Part shown: positions 4,122-54,411 of the stretch, piece by piece
How the letters are laid out: the number at the start of each line of letters is the position of its first letter
Position numbering within the stretch: position 1 is the first letter of the stretch
Source of the DNA: a virus
Length of the DNA: 64,000 bases
Reading direction: 5' to 3' (one strand)
UHGV virus genome: UHGV-1383976
Notes under the pieces: model-generated
Database searches by the model: none
Seen by the model: the letters and a program-made list of their open reading frames with translations, nothing else
What the model was told of the DNA's origin: nothing
Position numbers and translations under genes: made by a program

Positions 4122-4820
4122 ATGAACGAAGGACTTAGTGCTAGCGATATTCTCGCTTTGACACGTGATAACGATGATGGTATGAATAATGCTTGGAATA
4201 ACCCTTTTATTTATCTTGTTTGGTTGGCATTGTTAGGTGGCAATGGCGGACTTTTTGGCCGTCGTGATGACTGCGCAACGCAAGGCGCAATAACTCGTTC
4301 CGACCTGTTCGAAGGTTTCAACAACCAAGATGTAAATGGCCAACTTCGCGGTATTACTAATGGTATATGTGATGGCTTTTATGCTATCAATAGCGAGATG
4401 AAAGATGGCTTCTATGGCAACCAAGCCACAATCAAAGATGGCTTTTATTCCACTCAAGCAGCGCTTGCTGAAAACAGATTTGCTCAGCAGCAATGCTGCT
4501 GTGAGACGAACCGCAATATTGACAACGTTCGCTCCGAAGCCTATAAGAATACTTGTGAAATTACCACCGCAATTCATAATGAAGGTGAAGCAACTCGTGC
4601 TCTCATAACCGCAAATACAATGCAAGAACTCCGTGATAAGCTCGCTGATCGCGACAGAGATTTGCTTTATGCAAACTTCCAGAACTCTCAGCAGCTCCAG
4701 AACGCATATTTAGTCGATACTTTGCGTCCTGTTAGTAGACCTGCATATATTACCTGCAGTCCATATCAATCTGTTAACTCTTGTGGTACATCTAGCTGCG
4801 GCTGTGGCTATGGCATTTGA
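4122..4820 (+). CDS. Hypothetical protein with Cys-rich segments
   Basis: 232-aa ORF with RBS TAGGAGG. Contains QQCCCE and a C-terminal CGTSSCGCGYG cluster. Confidence 0.5.
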   Translation: MNEGLSASDILALTRDNDDGMNNAWNNPFIYLVWLALLGGNGGLFGRRDDCATQGAITRSDLFEGFNNQDVNGQLRGITNGICDGFYAINSEMKDGFYGNQATIKDGFYSTQAALAENRFAQQQCCCETNRNIDNVRSEAYKNTCEITTAIHNEGEATRALITANTMQELRDKLADRDRDLLYANFQNSQQLQNAYLVDTLRPVSRPAYITCSPYQSVNSCGTSSCGCGYGI

Positions 4821-4864
4821 GCCAACTCACCGTGAGTACATATCCGTATCAGGGGTGAAACTAA

Positions 4865-5281
4865 ATGGTAGATAGTTATAATATTCAATCTCAAACTGTT
4901 GATGTAAATGGCTTACTTACATTTCCTATCAATTCCATATTGACAGGCTGTACCGTTAGCCATACAGCAGGTAGCACAACATTCTCACTCAATAAGCCCG
5001 GACTTTATTTTGTATCATTCAATGCTGTCGGTACAATTTCAGGTGCTACTGCTGGTGCGATAACCGTTCAACTCCAGAATAATGGCACAGCAGTTCCGGG
5101 TGCGCTTAGCTCAGACACATCCGCATCAACAACTGACGTTCGTAATCTTTCCTTCACAAAAGTAATTCGAGTCAATCCATCTTGCTGTGCGGTCAATAAT
5201 CAAGCTAATCTGACATTTGTAAATGCAGGGCTTGGCGCGATTTACACCAATGCTAACGTGGTAATTACCAAGCTAGCGTAA
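4865..5281 (+). CDS. Hypothetical protein (possible virion protein)
   Basis: 138-aa ORF, Thr/Ser/Ala/Gly-rich and beta-rich. Confidence 0.45.
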   Translation: MVDSYNIQSQTVDVNGLLTFPINSILTGCTVSHTAGSTTFSLNKPGLYFVSFNAVGTISGATAGAITVQLQNNGTAVPGALSSDTSASTTDVRNLSFTKVIRVNPSCCAVNNQANLTFVNAGLGAIYTNANVVITKLA

Positions 5282-19717: not shown

Positions 19718-20714
19718 ATCGCTTATGCTTTAGCCTATATGTTTCCATATAGAATAGACTATCTTTTGCTATAAAAATATAGTGTGTCTCTTTCGATTTT
19801 CAAAGGTTTCATTTCTTAACACCTTGCTACGTATCAATAGTAGCTCTACTCCCCAGCATTTCAACCTAAGGGATAGTCGTTACAGGCTTATTTTACGTGC
19901 TTCCATGTTATATTATCGCAGACTCGTGAAATAGTAATATAAGAAACAAAAGAATATTGTTGACTAATTTGAGTTTTTGTTTTTCCTTGAGAATAAAGAT
20001 TTCGAATATTACGGACGTCCTGCTCCGTCAGTTTGGCTTTGACATTATTTTCTCCTCTATTTGCGATTGATGAATACTCTTGACGAGTTTTCTTTTCTGC
20101 AAATAATTCTTGTCCAATTTCAGGGTATGTTGTTCCCAACCAAACTTTTTCAAATACAGAGAACTTTCTGTCAGAAAAGTCTCTATATACTTCGCATTTT
20201 CTTTCCCCGTTTTTCTTCCTTTTTCTAATCCATAAAATTTCTTCATCAGAAAAAGAACGTCTAGTTTTTCTTTTTTCTTGCCCGCCTTCGGTTAAATTAT
20301 ATCCAAAATCTTTTTCATTCGCTCGGAAATATTTTATCCAGTATTTTTCTTTTTCATCTAATTCTTCGGGCAAACATTCTTCAAGGATAACAATTCTTTC
20401 TACTCGACCAAAATATTTTTTTATAGCTAAATCACAAGCCTGTTTATTTGAGCTGGGAGTATTATGCTCCCACATCCGTCTTTTTATATTAATACTTTGT
20501 CCAATATAACATTTATTATTTGGAAAATCAATCTTGTAAATACCACAAATATTTTGCTCTAAATCAGAAATTATAACTTGTTTCATAGTCCTCCTTTTTG
20601 GAGGCACGTAAAAAATTCCCACGGGATTACCATGCTTTTCAGTTTAGGTTTCCCCGTTAGCATATATTTCTATATACCCTTACTGATAAGTAAGAAAAGA
20701 CACATTCGCACCAT
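19718..20714 (-). mobile_element. Candidate group I intron (or HEG insertion) splitting the RecJ-like gene. Carries a GIY-YIG endonuclease gene.
   Basis: About 1 kb between the two RecJ halves. Contains 92 nt non-coding 5' of the HEG and 170 nt 3' of it. The 3' part has an R-like element (AACGACTATCCC, + coords 19871-19882) and an S-like element (AAGATAGTCT, + 19753-19768) that can pair as P7. Confidence 0.5.
19888..20622 (-). CDS. GIY-YIG homing endonuclease
   Basis: N-terminal CGIYKIDFPNNKCYIGQSINIKRRMWEHN is a GIY-YIG motif. Has a C-terminal DNA-binding-like region and a strong RBS (AAAGGAGG). Confidence 0.75.
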   Translation of the reverse strand: MGIFYVPPKRRTMKQVIISDLEQNICGIYKIDFPNNKCYIGQSINIKRRMWEHNTPSSNKQACDLAIKKYFGRVERIVILEECLPEELDEKEKYWIKYFRANEKDFGYNLTEGGQEKRKTRRSFSDEEILWIRKRKKNGERKCEVYRDFSDRKFSVFEKVWLGTTYPEIGQELFAEKKTRQEYSSIANRGENNVKAKLTEQDVRNIRNLYSQGKTKTQISQQYSFVSYITISRVCDNITWKHVK

Positions 20715-34742: not shown

Positions 34743-35791
34743 AAAAGAAAGTCCTGAGCACGTGTAATAGCAACATAAGCAAGACGTCCTTCTTCGACCA
34801 TACCAAGCGGCGCTCTGTGAGTATAATAGTTCGGCTCAGGAATTGTTGCGCCTATTACAACGACTTTCTTTTGTTGAAGTCCTTTTGAAGAATGTATTGT
34901 GAGGACTTTAACGGTATTCTGTTTCATTTTTTCTTGGAGTTGCCCAAGATTTACTTCCTTTTGCTTGAAAGTATCGCAAAAAATGCCGCGGCTTTCAAGA
35001 TAAGATTTGACAGTTTCAAGCTGTGCATTAGTGCGAGTCAATACAAACCATTCACCAAATTTACCATCTTGAAGTATATAATTTGCAACCGTTTCCAAAT
35101 TGTAAAGAATTGTAATCTTTTTCCCCATTTCATCTCGCATTAGAGTAGAATTGTCATAATAGCCACAATTCATCCGCTCAATAGCCCATTTTCCAAATTC
35201 GTGAATAACGCGCGCATTGCGGAAATTTTCAGATAGCTTATAAGTTGCTACTCCATCAGTTTGGCTCAAATTTACAATAAGGTCAGGATTACTGCCTGCA
35301 AATGCATATATCGTTTGCTTCTCGTCCCCTAATATTGTAAATCGTTTTGGATTTACCATTTCCAGAATAAATTCAAACTGATGGTTATTACTATCCTGCG
35401 CCTCGTCAAGCAGCAAATGATCAACAGGAAAATTACTTACACAGCGCGGGTTTTGTTTTACTAAATTGAATAGTTCATCAAAATCCTCACTTTCAATCGT
35501 CTCTCTGGTTGCAATTTGTTCAGTATGAAGTAAAAAGTTTGCAAATGAATGAACAGTGCCGCAAAATCCAATTTGTAAAGGTTCAAGGCGATTTATAATT
35601 TCTTGCGCCGCATTATTTGTAAATGTAATAGCCACAATATGTGAGGGCAATGTTCCCTGAGATACAAGCCACTTTATGCGTTCAATAAGACAAAAAGTCT
35701 TTGAAGTACCCGCGCTAGACATTACGACAACCTTGTCTTCTGGTGCGGTTATTATTCTACGCTGTTGTTCTGTTATTTTTATTTCATTCAT
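34682..35791 (-). CDS. UvrD/Rep-like superfamily 1 DNA helicase (short form)
   Basis: Walker A MSSAGTSKTF, motif II LLLDEAQD, and a C-terminal VLTIHSSKGLQ / VAITRA (motifs V/VI). Confidence 0.6.
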   Translation of the reverse strand: MNEIKITEQQRRIITAPEDKVVVMSSAGTSKTFCLIERIKWLVSQGTLPSHIVAITFTNNAAQEIINRLEPLQIGFCGTVHSFANFLLHTEQIATRETIESEDFDELFNLVKQNPRCVSNFPVDHLLLDEAQDSNNHQFEFILEMVNPKRFTILGDEKQTIYAFAGSNPDLIVNLSQTDGVATYKLSENFRNARVIHEFGKWAIERMNCGYYDNSTLMRDEMGKKITILYNLETVANYILQDGKFGEWFVLTRTNAQLETVKSYLESRGIFCDTFKQKEVNLGQLQEKMKQNTVKVLTIHSSKGLQQKKVVVIGATIPEPNYYTHRAPLGMVEEGRLAYVAITRAQDFLLWVKRRRVKKEQEQKFRSWE

Positions 35792-36603
35792 TATCCTACT
35801 CTCTCATTCAATCCAAATTTTTTTGTATCATAAAATTCAGTCCAATATTTTTCGCGTTCAGTTAGCTTATCTTTTGAAACTTTTTCCAGCAATTCAAAAG
35901 TAAAGTTTTCAATCCCATCTTCCTCCATTATGGTATGAAGGCGCGAATGACTGATGGTGCCACAATGATAGGCAGACTTAGCGTGTTGAACCCAACGGTC
36001 GCGCACATTTGTGGATTTGCCTATATAAATTTCGCCTGTTTTTTCACGTGTGATTTTATAGATGCCACTTGGTTGTTCTCCGTTTAAGACACGGCGTGTC
36101 ATTTCAAGGACAGGTTTAGCACAATAAGTATCATAAATCATCTTGTCAATATCAATTCGACGATTGAGCCGTGGAGCAATTTCTCGCAAAACTTGTATAT
36201 CACTTAACGCTTCAGGAGACAAATTGATTTTGAAGAAGGTTTGTTCTTCGATTTTCTTTTTTTCACGACGTATATCTTCATTTAGAACTTCGCGGCGTTC
36301 ACGCAAAGCGTCAAGAGTCTTTTGGACAATATCACATTGATATTGCGCGTCTTGCGTTTCTTGACTTATTTGTTCCATTCGAGCGTTATGTTGAAGTTCA
36401 ACCTCATCAAGCTCTTGTCGATATTTTTCTCTTACTTCTAAGACATTGCGCGCTGCTTCGTCTATAATTTCTTTTTCTTTTCGTAAAACTAAATTTCTTT
36501 TATAATAGTGAATGTATATAAAGTTAACAATTATCAGAGCAGCTATTATGAATATGGCCATCACAATTCCTCCTATATTTCTTACTATATATAAGTATAA
36601 CAT
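35791..36603 (-). CDS. Membrane-anchored coiled-coil protein with C-terminal GIY-YIG nuclease domain
   Basis: An N-terminal TM helix (IVMAIFIIAALIIVNFIYI), a long coiled coil, then GIYKITREKTGEIYIGKSTNVRDRWVQH (GIY-YIG). Confidence 0.5.
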   Translation of the reverse strand: MLYLYIVRNIGGIVMAIFIIAALIIVNFIYIHYYKRNLVLRKEKEIIDEAARNVLEVREKYRQELDEVELQHNARMEQISQETQDAQYQCDIVQKTLDALRERREVLNEDIRREKKKIEEQTFFKINLSPEALSDIQVLREIAPRLNRRIDIDKMIYDTYCAKPVLEMTRRVLNGEQPSGIYKITREKTGEIYIGKSTNVRDRWVQHAKSAYHCGTISHSRLHTIMEEDGIENFTFELLEKVSKDKLTEREKYWTEFYDTKKFGLNERVG

Positions 36604-45812: not shown

Positions 45813-46397
45813 ATGTCAAAGAATTTTTACATTAGTGACACCCATTTTGGACACGCTAACATTCTGAGATTTGATAGACGCCCATTCAATTCTGTTGAAG
45901 AAATGAACGCCGCGCTCATCAAGAATTGGAATGACGCAGTTGACCCGAATGACAATATTTACATACTGGGCGATTTTTGCTGGGGCAAGTCTGATGAATG
46001 GATTGATATTTTGTCTCAGCTCCAAGGCAACAAATATCTTATTGCAGGCAACCATGACTTGCGTAATCCTCCTTCTACTGTGCGGCGGTTCTTTCAGGAT
46101 TGGCGCGACTACAAAGAAATTTCTAACAACGATCGTAAGGTTATAATGTGTCATTATCCGATTCCATTTTACAAGTCAGATTACAACTCAAACACTTATA
46201 TGTTATTTGGTCATTTGCATACAACATTTGAGAATGAATATCTGGAAAATTTGCGATATCAAATAGAAAATGATCCTTATGAGCGGCCAGCCAAAAATCT
46301 TTGTCAGTTTTATAACGTCGGCTGTATGATGCCGTGGATGGACTATACACCGCGCACATTGGATGAAATTGTAGATGGATTTGCTAAGTTCCATTGA
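45813..46397 (+). CDS. Calcineurin-like metallophosphoesterase
   Basis: DTHFGH, GDF and GNHD motifs. 194 aa. RBS AAAGGAGA. Confidence 0.7.
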   Translation: MSKNFYISDTHFGHANILRFDRRPFNSVEEMNAALIKNWNDAVDPNDNIYILGDFCWGKSDEWIDILSQLQGNKYLIAGNHDLRNPPSTVRRFFQDWRDYKEISNNDRKVIMCHYPIPFYKSDYNSNTYMLFGHLHTTFENEYLENLRYQIENDPYERPAKNLCQFYNVGCMMPWMDYTPRTLDEIVDGFAKFH

Positions 46398-46409: not shown

Positions 46410-46961
46410 ATGGCAGTAAATAAAGGATATTTAACAGCAAAAACAGATAAAGAGTCTGATGAAGTATATACACCAGCATATGCTGTTCGACCTTTGGTTA
46501 AGTATTTGCGATTTTTTGAAAAAATAAAGGGGCATCCAATAAAAATTTGGTGTCCTTTTGATACGCAAAGCTCGCAATATGTTCAAGTGTTTAGAGAAGC
46601 TGGTTTTGAGGTTATTCACTCTCATATTGAGGAAGGGAAAAATTTCTTTTTCTACGAACCCGATGAACGGTATGATATTATTATTTCGAATCCACCTTTT
46701 TCACAAAAGGACAATGTTTTGAAACGTTTGTTTGAGTTAAACAAGCCATATGCGATGTTATTGCCAATTCCAGCCTTGCAAGGGCAAAAGCGTTTCCCTT
46801 ATATAAAAGATGGACTACAATATCTTGGTTTTGATAAGAGAATTAATTATTATACTAATGCAGATTTTTCTCAAGTGCAAAAAGGGGTTTCTTTTGGTTC
46901 TTGTTATTTGTGTAAGCAATTTCTTCCAAGAGATTTAATTCTTGAAGAGTTGGAAGCGTAA
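46410..46961 (+). CDS. Phage Dam-like N6-adenine DNA methyltransferase (NPPF motif)
   Basis: DEVYTP followed by DIIISNPPFS. The small size (183 aa) is typical of phage Dam-family MTases. Confidence 0.55.
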   Translation: MAVNKGYLTAKTDKESDEVYTPAYAVRPLVKYLRFFEKIKGHPIKIWCPFDTQSSQYVQVFREAGFEVIHSHIEEGKNFFFYEPDERYDIIISNPPFSQKDNVLKRLFELNKPYAMLLPIPALQGQKRFPYIKDGLQYLGFDKRINYYTNADFSQVQKGVSFGSCYLCKQFLPRDLILEELEA

Positions 46962-46966
46962 AAAAT

Positions 46967-47054
46967 GCGGGATGAACTCAGACGGCTCTGAAACCGGTCT
47001 TGAAAACCGTGGGCAGGCAAAACCTGTGGGGATCGACACCTCCGTCCCGCGCCA
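46967..47054 (+). tRNA. tRNA-Ser (TGA), type II
   Basis: Acceptor gcgggat/gtcccgc, anticodon loop ctTGAaa (4 bp plus C-T at the stem top), a long variable arm and CCA. Confidence 0.65.
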
Positions 47055-47058
47055 ATAT

Positions 47059-47144
47059 GCGGAGTAAATTTAGAAGGTCTAAAGCTCCCCTGCTAAGGGA
47101 TGCGTGGTGAAAACCATGGGGTTCGCGTCCTCTGCTCCGCGCCA
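47059..47144 (+). tRNA. tRNA-Ser (GCT), type II
   Basis: Acceptor gcggagt/gctccgc, anticodon loop ctGCTaa, variable arm gtggtgaaaaccat and CCA. Same architecture as the neighbouring Ser tRNA. Confidence 0.65.
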
Positions 47145-47232
47145 GCCCCATCTTCAGTTCTATAGCTGGTGAAGATGGATAGGCGATGAAGTATAGCAAT
47201 AATATGGCATGAGAACTATGATAGTGTTTCAT

Positions 47233-47322
47233 GAGAGCGTAACTCAGTCGGTAGAGTTTTATAGCGTGAAGGGATATGCTATTGAATGCCCTTAGTCGCC
47301 AGTTCGAATCTGGCCGCTCTCA
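47233..47322 (+). tRNA. Aberrant tRNA-like gene (perfect acceptor, D and T arms; about 17 extra nt in the anticodon/variable region; no encoded CCA)
   Basis: Acceptor gagagcg/cgctctc, D-arm actcagtcggtagagt, T-arm gccagttcgaatctggc. The central 40 nt do not give a canonical 5-7-5 anticodon arm. A 5-bp atagc/gctat helix encloses a 12-nt loop. Confidence 0.4.
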
Positions 47323-47350
47323 TTAAAAATATATATGAAGAGGAATAGTT

Positions 47351-47605
47351 ATGGCAATTAATATCATTAGTAAAGGAATAGATTTAAATAATCCTACCTA
47401 TGAAACACAGTGTCCTCATTGTAAATGTGTGTTTACCTATCAAGATTCTGATACTACTCAAAAACCTACTGGTAGATATTATAAAGATTTTGAGGAGTAT
47501 TTCATTAAGATGGATGATTGCAATAGGAAAGAAATTGCTGTGTATATTGATTGCCCTTGGTGCCATGAAAGAAACCATGTGAAAGATAAATATGTAAAAA
47601 TATAA
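47351..47605 (+). CDS. Small zinc-ribbon protein
   Basis: 84 aa. CPHCKC...CPWCHE. RBS GAGGAA. Confidence 0.45.
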   Translation: MAINIISKGIDLNNPTYETQCPHCKCVFTYQDSDTTQKPTGRYYKDFEEYFIKMDDCNRKEIAVYIDCPWCHERNHVKDKYVKI

Positions 47606-47610
47606 TAAAT

Positions 47611-48153
47611 GGCTCAGTAGCTCAGAGGCAGAGCGTGCGGCTGTTTACTTGACCTTATCATTCTTTATGAAAAAGATAATGAATAGTAAGCAAAAAGGAA
47701 ACATTACAGAACTTGAAACAATGTTAGCATTTCTAAAACTTGGTTATAATGTTTTAACTCCATATGGAGATTGTGAGAGATATGACTTTGTTGTAGATGT
47801 TAATGGAAAATTTATTCGAGTTCAAGCTAAAACATCAAATACTGAAGATGATGGTGCATCATTTAAATTTTCTTGTAGAAGTTGCAATAGAAAAGATGGT
47901 AAAATTGTGCATCATATATATTTAAGCGAAGAAATTGATTACTTCGTAACTACTTTTAATGGAAAATGTTATTTAATTCCAGTTGAAGAGTGCGGAGCTG
48001 ATAAAAGACTTCGTATTCTTCCAACAAAAAATGGACAGGTAAGAGGTATTACTTGGGCAAAAGATTATGAATTGGAGGAAGTAGTAAAGAATTGGTAAGC
48101 TGATGTGTAAGCAACCGCAAGGTCGAGATATCGTAATTCTCCTGAGCCTCCAT
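47611..48153 (+). tRNA. tRNA (Asn GTT or Asp GTC) interrupted in the anticodon loop by an insertion of about 467 nt that carries a PD-(D/E)XK endonuclease ORF
   Basis: The 5' half is 47611-47645: ggctcag-ta-gctc-agaggca-gagc-g-tgcgg-ctgtt. The 3' half is 48113-48153: aa-ccgca-aggtc-gagat-atcgtaa-ttctc-ctgagcc-t-cca. The acceptor pairs 7/7, the D-stem 4/4 and the anticodon stem tgcgg/ccgca 5/5, with CCA encoded. Confidence 0.55.
47649..48098 (+). CDS. Small PD-(D/E)XK nuclease-like protein inside the interrupted tRNA (homing endonuclease candidate)
   Basis: ERYDFVVDVNGKFIRVQAKT is a D...(E/Q)xK signature. Paralog of 49599..49958. The start may be the internal Met at 47667. Confidence 0.5.
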   Translation: MTLSFFMKKIMNSKQKGNITELETMLAFLKLGYNVLTPYGDCERYDFVVDVNGKFIRVQAKTSNTEDDGASFKFSCRSCNRKDGKIVHHIYLSEEIDYFVTTFNGKCYLIPVEECGADKRLRILPTKNGQVRGITWAKDYELEEVVKNW

Positions 48154-48158
48154 ATTAT

Positions 48159-48234
48159 GCGCCATTAGCTCAGTTGGTAGAGCATGGCACTTTTAATGCT
48201 GGGGTCTGCGGTTCAAGTCCGCAATGGCGCACCA
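48159..48234 (+). tRNA. tRNA-Lys (TTT)
   Basis: Perfect acceptor gcgccat/atggcgc, anticodon loop ctTTTaa, T-loop ttcaagt and CCA. Confidence 0.8.
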
Positions 48235-48254
48235 TAAATTTTGGAGGAAGTAAA

Positions 48255-48515
48255 ATGAAGCTGACAGAGAAAGGGACAATTGTATTTGCCGCTGCGTTAG
48301 AGCATTGTCCCAATGAACCTTTTACAGCGGCCAGTTTATCAACAAAGTGTGGCCTTCCTATTTCTGCAGCTACACTCAATGGTATCACCAATCAGGGACT
48401 TATGACTCGACTTGGCGGTTCGCCCGTTAAGTTTGAGTTAGTTTCTAACGCGAAAGACTTGTATAACAAGGCGCGCGAAGGCAAATCGGCGAATGAAAAT
48501 TTAAATAAAGCGTAG
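48255..48515 (+). CDS. Small putative DNA-binding protein (MKLTEK paralog 2)
   Basis: The listed ORF 48174.. begins inside tRNA-Lys. The real start is the ATG at 48255 with RBS GGAGGAAG. Paralog of 26606..26860. Confidence 0.45.
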   Translation: MKLTEKGTIVFAAALEHCPNEPFTAASLSTKCGLPISAATLNGITNQGLMTRLGGSPVKFELVSNAKDLYNKAREGKSANENLNKA

Positions 48516-48581: not shown

Positions 48582-49358
48582 TTGCGTGGTAAAAAGGTTT
48601 TATGTAATTGTAATGATGGTTTGACAAGTGAGTTCTTAAATTATTTTGTCAATAATTTTGATTGTCTTGAACTTGATGAACTTGTTTGTTTGACTTATAA
48701 TAAAGATGGAAAGGCATATAAGTATACCAAGCGTCCTAAAGTTGACCTTATGGTTGAACCACTCATCGGTTCTGGTGCATTTGATTCACAGGAAGGCCGA
48801 GATGCTCTTGCCGCTTGTGATATTGTTATAACAAATCCTCCCTTTAGTCAATTTCGAGATTTTGTCAATTTGATTTTGTCTTACAAAAAAGATTTTTTGA
48901 TAATTGGCAGTAAAAATGCTATTACCTACAAAGAATTTTTTCCACTTTTAATGAGTGGTAAAGTTCATATTGGCAATTTCAATGTTTCTACTTTTAAACA
49001 GCCAGATGGTACTGATAAAAAATTTGGTAATATCGGTTGGTTTACGACTCTTTCTGTTGTAAAAGCGGCACAACCAATTCCTTTAACAGCAACCTATGAT
49101 CCGCAAAATTATCCTACTTATGATAACTTCCGTGCAATTGAAGTAAGTCGCACAGCTAATATTCCTAAGGACTATGATGGCGTAATGGGGGTTCCTATTT
49201 CATTTCTGGACAAATTTTGTCCTACTCAATTTAAAATTGTTGGATGGAGTCGTCATAATGACGAAGGAATGGATGGCGGATACTGGACGGGTGGTTGTGC
49301 TGATGCTACTATAAATGGTAAGCAAGTTTATCGCAGAATTTTGATTCAGAAAATTTGA
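48582..49358 (+). CDS. Second N6-adenine DNA methyltransferase-like protein (NPPF motif)
   Basis: CDIVITNPPFSQFRDF. 258 aa. Paralogous catalytic motif to the CDS at 46410..46961. Confidence 0.5.
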   Translation: MRGKKVLCNCNDGLTSEFLNYFVNNFDCLELDELVCLTYNKDGKAYKYTKRPKVDLMVEPLIGSGAFDSQEGRDALAACDIVITNPPFSQFRDFVNLILSYKKDFLIIGSKNAITYKEFFPLLMSGKVHIGNFNVSTFKQPDGTDKKFGNIGWFTTLSVVKAAQPIPLTATYDPQNYPTYDNFRAIEVSRTANIPKDYDGVMGVPISFLDKFCPTQFKIVGWSRHNDEGMDGGYWTGGCADATINGKQVYRRILIQKI

Positions 49359-49383
49359 TTTTTATTAAAATTTTCGATATAAT
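49355..49383 (+). promoter_or_regulatory. Consensus phage promoter with duplicated leader
   Basis: TTGATT at 49355-49360, N17, TATAAT at 49378-49383, then ATATATATAGAAAGTTGAGAGAGA, identical to the leader at 43389-43412. Confidence 0.55.
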
Positions 49384-49598
49384 ATATATAGAAAGTTGAG
49401 AGAGAAACTTCCAGAGGTTGCGAATTAGCTATTCAATACAAAATCTCTCAAAATGATAAGGTTTTCGGTGTTTTACTTATCGGTTTTCTATGCAAAATGG
49501 TTCTAACAAGCCAGCGTGCGCGCGAGTAAAAGTTGTTAATAAGCGGTTGGCATACGTGATAAGCCGTTGCCCCAGCGAGAAGATTTAATAAATCTTCT

Positions 49599-49958
49599 TT
49601 GTTGGTGGTGTTTAATAAAAATGCGTCAGTAGCAACCCAGTGGTATGATTTGATTATAGAAAAAGATGATAAATTTGAAACAGTACAATGTAAGTGTACT
49701 GGTTCTCAGAACAACGTCATTAGTCTAAAGTCTTGTGGCGGTACAAAAGGTGAAGCTTATGACAATGTTCTTAATCATTCTGGGCTTGATAAATTATTTT
49801 GCGTGGATATAAATGGTAATATGTACGTGATCCCGATGTCAGAGGTTGTGGCATCTGGAAATACTAAGCAAATTACTTTACGTACTGAACCCACAGCAAA
49901 TAATCAAGGTTTTCAAACTCATAAATTTCGAGTTCAATTCTCGTTTCAAGCGTCGTAA
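49599..49958 (+). CDS. PD-(D/E)XK nuclease-like paralog (TTG start, long 5' leader)
   Basis: Shares YDxxxxxxxKFxxVQxK...SxKSC and a C-terminal (M/C)Y(L/V)IP(V/M)xE with the CDS at 47649..48098. No clear RBS. Confidence 0.35.
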   Translation: MLVVFNKNASVATQWYDLIIEKDDKFETVQCKCTGSQNNVISLKSCGGTKGEAYDNVLNHSGLDKLFCVDINGNMYVIPMSEVVASGNTKQITLRTEPTANNQGFQTHKFRVQFSFQAS

Positions 49959-50009
49959 ACCCGTTTCCTTCGAGAGTAACTGGATCGACACCAGTCTGAC
50001 GCACCATTT

Positions 50010-50324: not shown

Positions 50325-51060
50325 TAAGATAAAGAAAAGAAAAAGTCAAAAGGAGGACAATGCTAGTGCCACCTACACGTGGTGTCCTCTGTTTTCGCTA
50401 AGAGCGCTGGCATATATCCAATTAAATAATACTAACTCAGTGAAGACGGAATTCGATGTTCCGGCTGAGAAATTCCAGCTAGCACAGCAGAAACGAAACA
50501 AGGATACTTGTGGATACTGGACTGAGAGGCCATCGAGAGATGAGCCGAAGTAGAGCGGTCGCTCAAGTGGGAAGAAGAGCAGGAATTGTGCTGAGTGAAT
50601 CGCAAGCAAACGCAGCCGTGGAGTGGCGAGCGCAATAGACAGCTTGGTGAATAGCCAAGCCGAACCCAAGTTAGGTCTTAGTTGGTGCCTGTGGCAATCC
50701 TTGGGAAAACCAATAAGCTCGTTCCGTTGAGACGACAGGGAATGTGAAATCTGTCTTTGACACTCTACAGCATCCGAGTAGCGGAACACAACGGGGACTT
50801 ATAGAAAAGATGGTCAGTAATAATAGAAATTGCTATTTTATCTTTCTGAACATCCCGTGAAAGGTAGAGGTAATCAACCCTCTGGCGGATTAGGCGACAT
50901 TAGACACTTGGGCTATCCAAGAGTAACAAGTCAATGTTGTTGCTGGGGTAAGAAGTGTATGGGCGACGGCCTGTATGCTCAGACTTATCTCCCGCGTGGC
51001 AGAATATGCTTGAAGGTTTATCGAGGTAGGGCGAAGGCCCAGTAATATTTAGTTGGATTT
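50325..51060 (+). ncRNA. Candidate large structured non-coding RNA (about 0.7 kb, GC-rich, no credible ORF)
   Basis: Local GC is well above the roughly 36% background. Only short mutually overlapping ORFs occur on both strands, none with an RBS. The region is preceded by a consensus promoter, contains many stable local hairpins and is flanked by tRNA-Trp and tRNA-Met. Confidence 0.4.
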
Positions 51061-53160: not shown

Positions 53161-53481
53161 ATGGATAAATATACTGGCTATTATGAGTGGCATCCATCAG
53201 AACAAGGACTTGAGGATTTTTATTCTGGCCTTTTTACACCTGCAGGGATGGGCTTGGTTGAAAACCAGTATTTGATTATCTATGACTCCGAAGATAAGGT
53301 TATAGATAAATATTTTTGTAAGAACAATGAATTTGAAAAGGTTCATTATATGGCGCTTCAAAGCGATTACTGTGGGGTTATCAAACCACGCAATGTATAT
53401 CAGGAATTGGCTATTCATTCCCTTATGGATAGACGTGTTCCCGTAAAAGTTTTGGGTGGCGTCTTTGGCTCGGGTAAATAA
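53161..53481 (+). CDS. PhoH-like ATPase, exon 1 (ends inside the Walker A motif)
   Basis: Ends ...AIHSLMDRRVPVKVLGGVFGSGK followed by a stop. GxxGSGK is a P-loop truncated just before the expected T/S. The remainder of PhoH is encoded by 54409..54942. Confidence 0.6.
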   Translation: MDKYTGYYEWHPSEQGLEDFYSGLFTPAGMGLVENQYLIIYDSEDKVIDKYFCKNNEFEKVHYMALQSDYCGVIKPRNVYQELAIHSLMDRRVPVKVLGGVFGSGK

Positions 53482-54411
53482 CTTGCCCCTTCTTAGGGCG
53501 ACCTAAGAATGAAAATCGCGTGAATTGCTGGAAGCCTAAGCCGCAAGGTATGGTAATCAGCAGCCAAGCCGTTTTAGCAACGGAAGGTTCAACGACTATC
53601 CCGGCAGGGAGTAGGGAGCAATCCCGAAGCGCGCGACAACTTTTGTTTTGTTTTTATTTTAATAAAGGAGGTGAGGTTATAAATAAGTGGACAGATGAAC
53701 AAAAAGCAGAAATTATTGATGATTATACCAAAAAAGGTATGACTTTGGCAGAGATTGGAAAAAAATTTCATTCTAAAGGAGATACAATTAGTAAATATCT
53801 AAAGTCTTGGGATATTCCCATCAATCGTAGAAAGAAAAATCGGCTTATGAATGAAAAGTTTTTTTCTATAATTGACTCAGCTGAAAAGAGTTATTTTCTG
53901 GGCTTGTTATTCGCTGATGGTTCAGTTGTTTTAAATAGCGAGCGGGCGCCATATGTTTCTTTAGAATTAGTAGAAAAGGACAAAGAAATATTAGAAATTT
54001 TCCGTTCATTATTAAATTGTCAAAATGACTTATACTACAATAAGCGAGATAATCGGAAGAATGGAACATATACTTTTGGAGTAAGAAGTCAATTACTAGC
54101 TGATGATTTAGCTAAATTTAATATCATTCCAAATAAAACTTATGAAACAACCCAAGTAATTTTCCCAGAAAATTTTCTTATTGATTTTCTAAGAGGGTAT
54201 ATTGATGGCGATGGCTCTATTTATCAAAATGTTTATAAGGCCGTTTGGAATGGACAAGATGCTAAACGAATTATAAACATTCTCTATTTAAAGAACGATG
54301 GCATTGCGCTCTCTCGAAAACGAGAACGAGCTAAGTTAGCTCAACAAAACAAAAGTTGATGATATAGTCTAATCCCTTTTTAAAAATATCGGGAAACCGA
54401 GGGTATAAATG
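53476..54411 (+). mobile_element. Group I intron (IA-like) in the phoH-like gene, carrying a LAGLIDADG homing endonuclease ORF
   Basis: Q-like AATCAGCAGCC (53555-53565), R-like GGTTCAACGACTATCCC (53586-53602) and S-like TGATGATATAGTCTAATCC (54357-54376). R/S give a GACTAT/ATAGTC P7 pairing. Proposed splice sites are after U53475 and after G54411, giving an in-frame junction GSG/KDLL. Confidence 0.6.
53520..54359 (+). CDS. LAGLIDADG homing endonuclease (double-motif)
   Basis: Two LAGLIDADG motifs, LGLLFADGSV and LRGYIDGDGSI. The true start is uncertain because the upstream part of the listed ORF overlaps conserved intron elements. The likely start is near 53680, after AAAGGAGG. Confidence 0.75.
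   Translation: MNCWKPKPQGMVISSQAVLATEGSTTIPAGSREQSRSARQLLFCFYFNKGGEVINKWTDEQKAEIIDDYTKKGMTLAEIGKKFHSKGDTISKYLKSWDIPINRRKKNRLMNEKFFSIIDSAEKSYFLGLLFADGSVVLNSERAPYVSLELVEKDKEILEIFRSLLNCQNDLYYNKRDNRKNGTYTFGVRSQLLADDLAKFNIIPNKTYETTQVIFPENFLIDFLRGYIDGDGSIYQNVYKAVWNGQDAKRIINILYLKNDGIALSRKRERAKLAQQNKS

Follow-up and report, generated by a model that had tools for sequence, protein, structure and literature searches.

Endonuclease-bearing inserts in the anticodon loop of phage tRNA genes, with a predicted rod that pairs the insert to the anticodon

The interrupted tRNA-Asn gene and its endonuclease

A stretch of 64,000 nucleotides (nt) of the virus genome UHGV-1383976, called the window throughout, contains a tRNA array in which one gene, for tRNA-Asn, is interrupted in its anticodon loop by an insert carrying a homing endonuclease gene. 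ARAGORN with introns allowed (setting -i) called a single tRNA spanning 47611-48152 with a 467-nt insertion in the anticodon loop, and this split tRNA-Asn was missed by both default ARAGORN and default Rfam. An earlier note, made from the letters alone, had proposed at this place a tRNA split in the anticodon loop by a 467-nt insert with a PD-(D/E)XK nuclease gene, and both the ARAGORN call and an intronless allele bear this out. The acceptor stem is paired at 7/7 positions and the anticodon stem (tgcgg/ccgca) at 5/5, as the note described. Its 5' segment (47611-47645) and its start of the 3' segment (48113) were likewise retained, but the 3' end of the tRNA given by ARAGORN is 48152 and not 48153. 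The parts of the locus, all on the plus strand, are as follows.

47611..47645, plus strand: tRNA-Asn exon 1, with the acceptor 5' strand, the D arm, the 5' strand of the anticodon stem (47636-47640) and loop nt 32-36 (c t GTT)
47646..48112, plus strand: insertion, an intron-like element of 467 nt between tRNA nt 36 and 37
47679..48098, plus strand: homing endonuclease gene, 139 amino acids and a stop codon, matching PF11645 and 2OST, with its probable start placed from homologues
48113..48152, plus strand: tRNA-Asn exon 2, with loop nt 37-38 (aa), the 3' strand of the anticodon stem, the variable loop, the T arm, the acceptor 3' strand, U73 and CCA

The limits of the insert were taken from uninterrupted alleles. 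Searching with the joined anticodon arm of the interrupted tRNA led to an intronless allele in IMG/VR contig 3300045988_123155 (L165), which is identical to exon 1 plus exon 2 at 75/75 positions, including nt 1-35 that define exon 1, and BLAST of this allele against the window breaks at 47645|48113. A second comparison came from Enterococcus phage EFP01 (KY549443), which carries a 463-nt insert of the same kind in a different tRNA body, with a protein 59-60% identical to that of the window. The uninterrupted gene, annotated as tRNA-Asn, is present in about 28 other Schiekvirus records, and among the 31 matched records (about 30 distinct phages) the insert is present only in EFP01. Alignment of EFP01 with the intronless phage iF6 placed the junction at ...CTGTT|AACC.... 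These two presence/absence comparisons (EFP01/iF6 and window/L165) are independent and settle the junction and the identity: read from the aligned alleles, the interrupted tRNA is tRNA-Asn with anticodon GUU, and the insertion lies between nt 36 and 37. The earlier note had left the choice between Asn and Asp open; Asn is the one that held. The Asp (GUC) junction, listed there as satisfying the group I rule of an exon ending in U and an intron ending in G, was excluded, as the intronless alleles give GUU|A and the insert begins with U and ends with C. Uninterrupted alleles in L165 and iF6 match the joined exons, and chance complementarity of the two halves, already considered unlikely in the note, is further countered by the 75/75 allele and by the same arrangement in about 60 other phage tRNAs. 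The tRNA has an unusual T arm (GAGAT ATCGTAA TTCTC) and U73. Both are shared by the intronless L165 allele and are therefore older than the insertion, and no sign of decay following it. An intact separate tRNA-Asn or tRNA-Asp, which would have told against a split gene, was found in the window by neither ARAGORN nor Rfam.

The mechanically defined open reading frame (ORF) of the insert is 47649-48098 with start codon TTG 47649. Its product matches Pfam PF11645 (PDDEXK_5) with E=1.5e-30 and 106.5 bits (cut-off 26.1) over profile positions 1-137 of 138, and PDB entry 2OST (I-Ssp6803I) with E=7.6e-9. The ORF of the earlier note is thus real and of the I-Ssp6803I family, but the true start is probably ATG 47679 (MNSKQKGN...), with the in-frame ATG 47667 as the alternative. 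No Shine-Dalgarno sequence was visible upstream of the gene, nor in family members. Residues E11, D36, Q49 and K51 are invariant in 17 homologues (alignment A2), and we take them to be the active site published for I-Ssp6803I (E, D, Q-x-K). Judged from these matches, the insert protein is a plain single-domain I-Ssp6803I homologue with the residues of a metal-dependent DNase. Only about 33 + 14 nt of the insert are non-coding, and the ORF fills it to the point of leaving no room for a classical self-splicing core, as the note had observed.

The insert family and the covarying rod

Relatives were collected from IMG/VR and GTDB genomes by protein and by alignment of relatives, giving about 120 loci. 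Among 86 loci examined with ARAGORN, the ORF lies inside a split tRNA in about 80%. After removal of duplicates there were about 60 distinct interrupted phage tRNAs, 45 of which parsed cleanly, and the statistics on the rod, the anticodons and splicing in silico given below cover these 45 members. They comprise 12 anticodons (GUU, GAU, UUU, UUG, GCU, UGU, UGC, ACG, UGG, GGU, GGG and UUC), with the insert at a constant position (36|37). All members sit in phage tRNA arrays, often adjoining genes for ROOL RNA or transfer-messenger RNA (tmRNA). The non-coding parts of the insert measure 14-35 nt at the 5' side and 6-15 nt at the 3' side in most members, and the proteins have diverged to about 35% identity. 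Three loci (L105, L106 and L107, in tRNA-Thr and tRNA-Pro) have longer inserts of 657-670 nt with about 225-260 nt extra between the 5' junction and the ORF, a segment without an Rfam match. Two others (L021 and L028, on the same contigs as L062 and L069) contain an in-frame TAG at endonuclease codon 27, where the residue varies, and the frame is otherwise open. Reading this as a premature stop caused by decay was set aside, since the identical in-frame TAG is found in both, and the two may be TAG-recoded phages rather than pseudogenes.

The ends of the insert are predicted to pair with the exons. In the 45 members the last three bases of the insert are complementary to the anticodon, the bases preceding them pair with the first bases of the insert, and U33 pairs with A/G37, by which the anticodon stem is lengthened into a rod. 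In the window the predicted rod, folded as a mini-precursor, consists of the following segments, all on the plus strand.

47642..47648, plus strand: 5' strand of the proximal rod helix, made of U33, anticodon G34 U35 U36 and insert positions +1 to +3, pairing with 48107-48113
47649..47653, plus strand: 5' strand of the internal-loop motif, (U)UGAC, a box-D-like CUGA in relatives, kept in class 1 though the tRNA bodies differ
47654..47668, plus strand: 5' strand of the distal rod helix, in the 5' untranslated region (UTR) of the endonuclease gene
48084..48099, plus strand: 3' strand of the distal rod helix, formed by the last ORF codons, the stop codon and 1 nt, pairing with 47654-47668
48100..48106, plus strand: 3' strand of the internal-loop motif, CUGAUGU, box-C-like, with predicted tandem G.A/A.G and U.U pairs and a bulged U
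48107..48113, plus strand: 3' strand of the proximal rod helix, insert positions -6 to -1 (GUAAGC) and A37, the last three insert bases pairing with the anticodon

The 3' terminal triplet of the insert tracks the anticodon over all 12 anticodon types. Two classes of internal loop were distinguished. In class 1, to which the window belongs, 5' (C/U)UGA-C stands opposite 3' CU-GAUG-(U); in class 2 the loop is 1x2, with A opposite CA within AAACUU/AAGCAUU. Both classes share a 1x2 asymmetry located 7-8 pairs from the 5' junction. The GCUGAUG motif follows the stop codon in the window and overlaps the TGA stop in EFP01, and is therefore conserved at the nucleotide level. The distal helix has 6-16 base pairs (bp) across the family and joins the 5' UTR to the last codons and the stop codon. 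The same fold was obtained for 45/45 mini-precursors, and the duplex energy of the insert ends was -17.2 kcal/mol for cognate against -6.9 kcal/mol for non-cognate combinations, the cognate partner ranking best in 35/45. Covariation was assessed on a gap-free anchored alignment (A3) of the 45 sequences for eight proximal pairs. These were paired in 93.6% of cases, and seven of the eight showed changes on both sides. As a control, sliding the partner by 1-3 columns lowered the pairing to 36-43%, and none of 500 shuffles reached the observed value. G.U pairs are frequent in the triplet helix (for example U35.G(-2) in nearly all Asn members), which argues for pairing at the level of RNA rather than DNA; terminal inverted repeats acting in the DNA were rejected on the same ground, as the G.U pairs are conserved. 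In the RNA the two junctions flank the triplet formed by the anticodon and its complement, with two-fold symmetry and a 3-nt 3' stagger. The rod is thus predicted from comparative evidence, in which the covariation is strong. In one interrupted tRNA (L025 / L066, IMGVR_UViG_7000000052_000049) the joined loop is UUUUAAA, giving the anticodon UUA of an ochre suppressor; this anticodon pairs with the last three bases of the insert, which are the UAA stop of the endonuclease itself, and a 3' non-coding tail is missing altogether.

Joining the exons in silico at 36|37 gave sequences that ARAGORN called tRNA in 45/45 cases. The isotype fits the tRNA body, with the long variable arm of class II tRNA-Ser present in 5/5 GCU members, and the discriminators largely fit as well. 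Position 33 is U and position 37 a purine throughout, and 32.38 is usually unpaired. A trio of tRNA-Gln members is informative, because its similarity of about 84% is limited to the tRNA and the insert, with unrelated flanks and about equal divergence of exons and insert. Nearly all exon differences in this trio are located in stems and are compensated, the acceptor stem remains 7/7 in all three, the T and anticodon stems are kept, and the rod also carries compensatory changes. This pattern indicates selection on the cloverleaf while it was linked to the insert, and would fit a spliced tRNA and a tRNA-shaped frame for processing alike. The presence/absence polymorphism at the identical site in close relatives, together with an insert similarity exceeding that of the tRNAs, fits homing.

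A second, decayed copy of such an element lies in the window at 49599-50006. The match of its ORF (49599-49958) to PF11645 (E=7.7e-8) begins only at profile position 33, so that the N-terminal catalytic Glu is missing. The ORF is followed by the 3' part of a tRNA, namely a T arm (49979-49995), the acceptor strand CTGACGC (49996-50002), A and CCA, and the complementary acceptor strand GCGTCAG is found at 49623-49629, within the ORF. The arrangement looks like the result of a deletion of the D/anticodon arm, the 5' end of the insert and the first ~32 codons.

Intron class and fate of the insert

Known members of the PF11645/I-Ssp6803I family reside in group I introns of tRNA-fMet and tRNA-Arg genes (PMC13011429), and the earlier note had suggested that a catalytic core might overlap the ORF. 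Self-splicing, by such a group I or other ribozyme core or by a pair of small ribozymes at the ends followed by ligation, would agree with this otherwise group I-borne endonuclease family, with the U at the end of the 5' exon, and with the minority of relatives whose inserts reach 600-670 nt through about 225 nt added on the 5' side. However, no Rfam family, including Intron_gpI (RF00028), was found in 47300-48400 at E<=10, and no Intron_gpI match was obtained at the gathering threshold in 20 related loci, the 600-670-nt inserts included, while the genuine group I intron of the window (53466-53741) scored 66.7 bits as a positive comparison. The last base of the insert is C in the window and across the family complements nt 34 (as C, A, U or G), so that there is no conserved omega-G. 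The 5' exon ends in U in the window, and in G or C in the Gln, Pro, Ala, Arg and Glu members. In place of a P1 pairing with a guide sequence near the 5' end of the intron, the 5' exon end, which is the anticodon, covaries with the 3' terminal triplet of the insert. Synonymous variation between homologues is flat (0.3-0.5) along the ORF, without a dip, which makes a hidden RNA core within the coding sequence unlikely, the more so since the proteins have diverged to about 35% identity. Moreover, the two classes do not share the few non-coding nucleotides that are conserved, and the junctions lie inside a regular helix, which is unfavorable for in-line cleavage. On every testable point the element departs from group I introns. 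A core outside or inside the ORF was rejected on the permissive Rfam scan, the 20 loci and the synonymous-site profile together, and with it the suggestion of the note; the evidence points to the alternative that the note kept in reserve, namely a disrupted tRNA or a novel processing route.

Other RNA classes were also considered. A hammerhead (CUGAUG...GAAA) was rejected by inspection, as the window has GUAAGC instead of GAAA and lacks stem II, and the motif is missing in class 2. The bulge-helix-bulge (BHB) fold of archaeal introns, including a register that loops out the anticodon, was rejected because position -2 covaries with nt 35 in the Ile and Lys members; the 45 folds show a continuous helix with junctions 3 bp apart and a mismatch only at 32.38. 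A reading as an RNase P or external-guide-like substrate (a helix followed by NCCA) was dropped, since the bases after the helix are AGCA, AUCA or AAAA and not conserved. In comparison with a kink-turn, CUGA opposite CUGAUG permits the G.A, A.G, U.U and G-C pairs, but the loop has 2 nt against 1 nt and not a 3-nt bulge, and in class-2 members the site is replaced by Watson-Crick pairs and a 1x2 loop (A/CA). We therefore regard it as settled that the element is neither group I nor BHB, but a homing-endonuclease element with a conserved exon-intron rod.

Introns of bacteria and their phages are generally regarded as self-splicing (group I or II), and the splicing of tRNA introns by proteins is considered a hallmark of archaea and eukaryotes. 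The closest architecture is that of the ORF-bearing archaeal BHB introns and the split tRNAs of Nanoarchaeum, with a helix at the boundary and an ORF in the loop. The archaeal introns also share the pairing of anticodon and intron and the site beside the anticodon, and removal of the phage insert would likewise need a protein endonuclease and a ligase. Unlike them, the phage insert has neither 3-nt bulges nor a 4-bp central helix but a continuous helix with closely spaced junctions, and its endonuclease is PD-(D/E)XK where the archaeal ones are LAGLIDADG. We know of no EndA in bacteria or their phages, and none was seen among the window ORFs scanned. Free-standing homing endonuclease genes occur in or near phage tRNA clusters (SegB of T4), and in Aeromonas phage Aeh1 the insertion of mobE splits nrdA into working pieces. 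The present elements resemble SegB and nrdA/mobE as ribozyme-less endonuclease genes spreading among phages, in tRNA arrays, but differ in the location of the gene inside a tRNA, always at the same nucleotide, and in the covarying RNA structure that ties it to the exons. With the PF11645-bearing group I introns, such as the cyanobacterial tRNA-fMet intron (I-Ssp6803I) and the tRNA-Arg introns of Bacteroidota and Campylobacterota (PMC13011429), they have in common the endonuclease family, the anticodon loop as site, and a mobility visible as presence/absence among close relatives. Unlike those introns, they are found in phages of Bacillota, are inserted at 36|37, are about 460 nt long and nearly all ORF, have ends that pair mutually and with the anticodon, and lack the group I core, omega-G and P1/guide pairing. 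The nearest published report is that of "enigmatic" short introns in tRNAs of Lak megaphages (bioRxiv 10.1101/356790), also phage tRNAs interrupted by sequences of no known intron class, although those are short and ORF-less and the present inserts bear an ORF. No description of ribozyme-free endonuclease introns in phage tRNAs was found in the full-text literature, the coverage of which was incomplete, and an earlier description is possible.

Our preferred interpretation is that the insert is a mobile, ribozyme-free intron excised by protein enzymes, to which we give a probability of about 0.5. An I-Ssp6803I-type endonuclease element has inserted between nt 36 and 37 of the tRNA-Asn(GUU) gene. 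In the transcript the last three bases of the insert are predicted to fold onto the anticodon and the next ones onto the 5' end of the insert, the distal helix closing off the ORF. The rod would then serve as the splicing substrate of a structure-measuring protein endonuclease, of host or phage origin, which would cut both strands at the junctions on either side of the anticodon:anti-anticodon triplet, and an RNA ligase (RtcB or Rnl-type) would reseal the anticodon loop, yielding functional tRNA-Asn along with an endonuclease mRNA closed by a stem. On DNA, the endonuclease would cut intronless tRNA alleles, allowing the element to spread by homing. This interpretation is suggested by four points: structure and geometry, not sequence, are common to both classes, the pairing is exact at the junctions, the internal loop lies at a fixed distance and the tRNA features are kept.

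Several observations weigh against protein-dependent excision. We know of no bacterial enzyme that makes such cuts, and the overhangs left by RNase III measure 2 nt instead of 3 nt. A scan of roughly 40 window ORFs gave no RNA ligase, RtcB or Pnkp, the search for a phage-encoded enzyme of this kind yielding only metallophosphoesterases and a DUF2828 protein, and none is annotated in iF6 at 1-50 kb and 106-156 kb (100 of 156 kb). Folding the complete 542-nt window transcript to minimum free energy retains the acceptor and anticodon stems, but gives local alternatives in place of the rod. Inserts of the Asn class are 75-88% identical and closer to each other than their host tRNAs are (60-75%), therefore pointing to horizontal homing, and the intact exons of this class could be merely young. 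The decayed copy at 49599-50006, finally, shows that such elements can end as dead tRNAs.

The last two of these points, and the lack of a ribozyme and of splicing enzymes identified in the window ORFs and the iF6 annotation, also speak for the main rival reading, that there is no splicing at all. The endonuclease gene would then have split and inactivated the tRNA by "intronless homing", with the phage relying on host tRNA-Asn, and the tRNA-shaped frame would serve processing of the array by RNase P/RNase Z, giving the endonuclease mRNA paired, exonuclease-resistant ends. EFP01 has been isolated as a viable phage even though the single tRNA-Asn gene it has is interrupted, and inserts pass between tRNA-Asn bodies that differ greatly. 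Selection for a tRNA-like frame would also explain the compensated exon stems of the Gln trio. On the other hand, in a mere clamp the pairing would not have to begin precisely at U33-A37 and always take in all three anticodon bases over 12 anticodons, nor would a sequence-conserved asymmetric loop be needed at a fixed distance from the junctions. U33, the purine at 37 and the mismatch at 32.38 are retained, as are bodies and discriminators that suit the isotype, and the loss of a tRNA at every homing event should be costly. Absence of splicing is a possibility to be taken seriously, at odds of the order of one against two.

A bolder version of protein-dependent excision, in which the PD-(D/E)XK enzyme of the intron itself would cut both its DNA target and the RNA rod, seems to us highly unlikely. 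The enzyme would recognize the anticodon duplex in intronless DNA as well as in the rod and cut on both sides of it. I-Ssp6803I reportedly cleaves DNA with 3-nt 3' overhangs flanking the anticodon triplet, a result that Bonocora and Shub are said to have obtained in 2001, and the RNA junctions flank the triplet with the same symmetry and stagger. In addition, the helix of nt 27-33 with nt 37-43 is a nearly exact copy of one DNA half-site, and the PD-(D/E)XK fold is shared by tRNA-splicing endonucleases (PMC3424549). However, the protein has the single domain and the metal-dependent DNase residues of its homologue, A-form RNA differs greatly as a substrate, insertion at 36|37 together with anticodon pairing by itself produces the stagger, and the intron side of the rod is unlike the second half-site in most members. 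Self-splicing, for the reasons given at the start of this section, is likewise highly unlikely.

Extended to the family, the interpretation as protein-excised introns would describe a widespread group of ribozyme-free mobile tRNA introns in Bacillota phages, removed by protein enzymes that recognize a rod in which the anticodon is paired to the 3' end of the intron; we put this forward tentatively, at slightly less than even odds. The elements represent either a new way of intron removal in bacteria or a new way for a selfish gene to inhabit a tRNA. If spliced by proteins, they would reveal the first protein-dependent tRNA splicing pathway in the bacterial world. Splicing would also provide a natural substrate for the long-unexplained RtcB/Rnl tRNA-repair ligases of bacteria and phages, would bear on the origin of ORF-only archaeal introns and of composite group I/endonuclease introns, and would mean that standard tRNA annotation overlooks functional phage tRNAs. 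The cultured pair EFP01 (with the insert) and iF6 (without it) on Enterococcus faecium makes the question accessible to ordinary methods.

Neighboring genes and other inserts

Immediately upstream of the split tRNA-Asn lies a possible promoter, and no terminator was found between the gene and the following tRNA-Lys (48159).

47579..47606, plus strand: promoter-like site GTGAAA-16-TATAAT, ending 5 nt before the tRNA, a consensus match only, in a number not above shuffled expectation

Neither ARAGORN nor Rfam called two tRNA-like genes that end in GCGCCA (46966-47056 and 47060-47148). On visual inspection these are class II tRNAs with unusual D arms, whose loops read CUUGAAA (Ser UGA) and CUGCUAA (Ser GCU), respectively, and they are kept in the related contig L165 at 87% and 99%. 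A 92-nt "tRNA-Phe(GAA)" at 47232-47323 was called by ARAGORN only, without an Rfam match at gathering score; with its mismatched anticodon stem and long extra arm it could represent either a pseudogene or a tRNA carrying a short insert. Protein genes within the array at 45813-46397, 46410-46961 and 48582-49358 encode a calcineurin-like metallophosphoesterase and two EcoRI-methylase-like (NPPF) proteins, one of the latter genes being directly downstream of tRNA-Lys. These proteins may serve in DNA methylation or in RNA end-healing/modification.

A G+C-rich, apparently structured region (49388-49598), which directly precedes the decayed copy, follows a promoter-like TTGATT...TATAAT (~49353-49388) and had no Rfam match at the gathering threshold. 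A ROOL RNA (271.8 bits) lies within the tRNA array at 50412-51059, and ROOL also adjoins the interrupted tRNA-Asn in EFP01 (L001 3912-4498) and in L084. The window is rich in homing elements. The genuine group I intron at 53466-53741 (66.7 bits, as above) has a LAGLIDADG ORF (53520-54359) and lies just upstream of a PhoH-like ORF; since the match of that ORF starts at profile position 40, the host gene of the intron is probably phoH. Two GIY-YIG endonuclease genes are located at 19888-20622 and 35791-36603.

ORF-less derivatives consisting of the rod alone were also looked for, and the candidates were discarded, as the ARAGORN short-intron scan gave mostly false positives. Short ORF-less insertions (45-66 nt) in anticodon loops of phage tRNAs form a separate family with a GGGGCAGCA...CACCA motif, found in L165 (reverse strand, 4785-4916 and 379-519), L083 (101-236) and L015 (2569-2690). 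Its members carry the motifs GGGGCAG(C/T)A and CACCA(A/U)(A/U) just before exon 2, and an internal stretch of the insert is paired to part of the anticodon.

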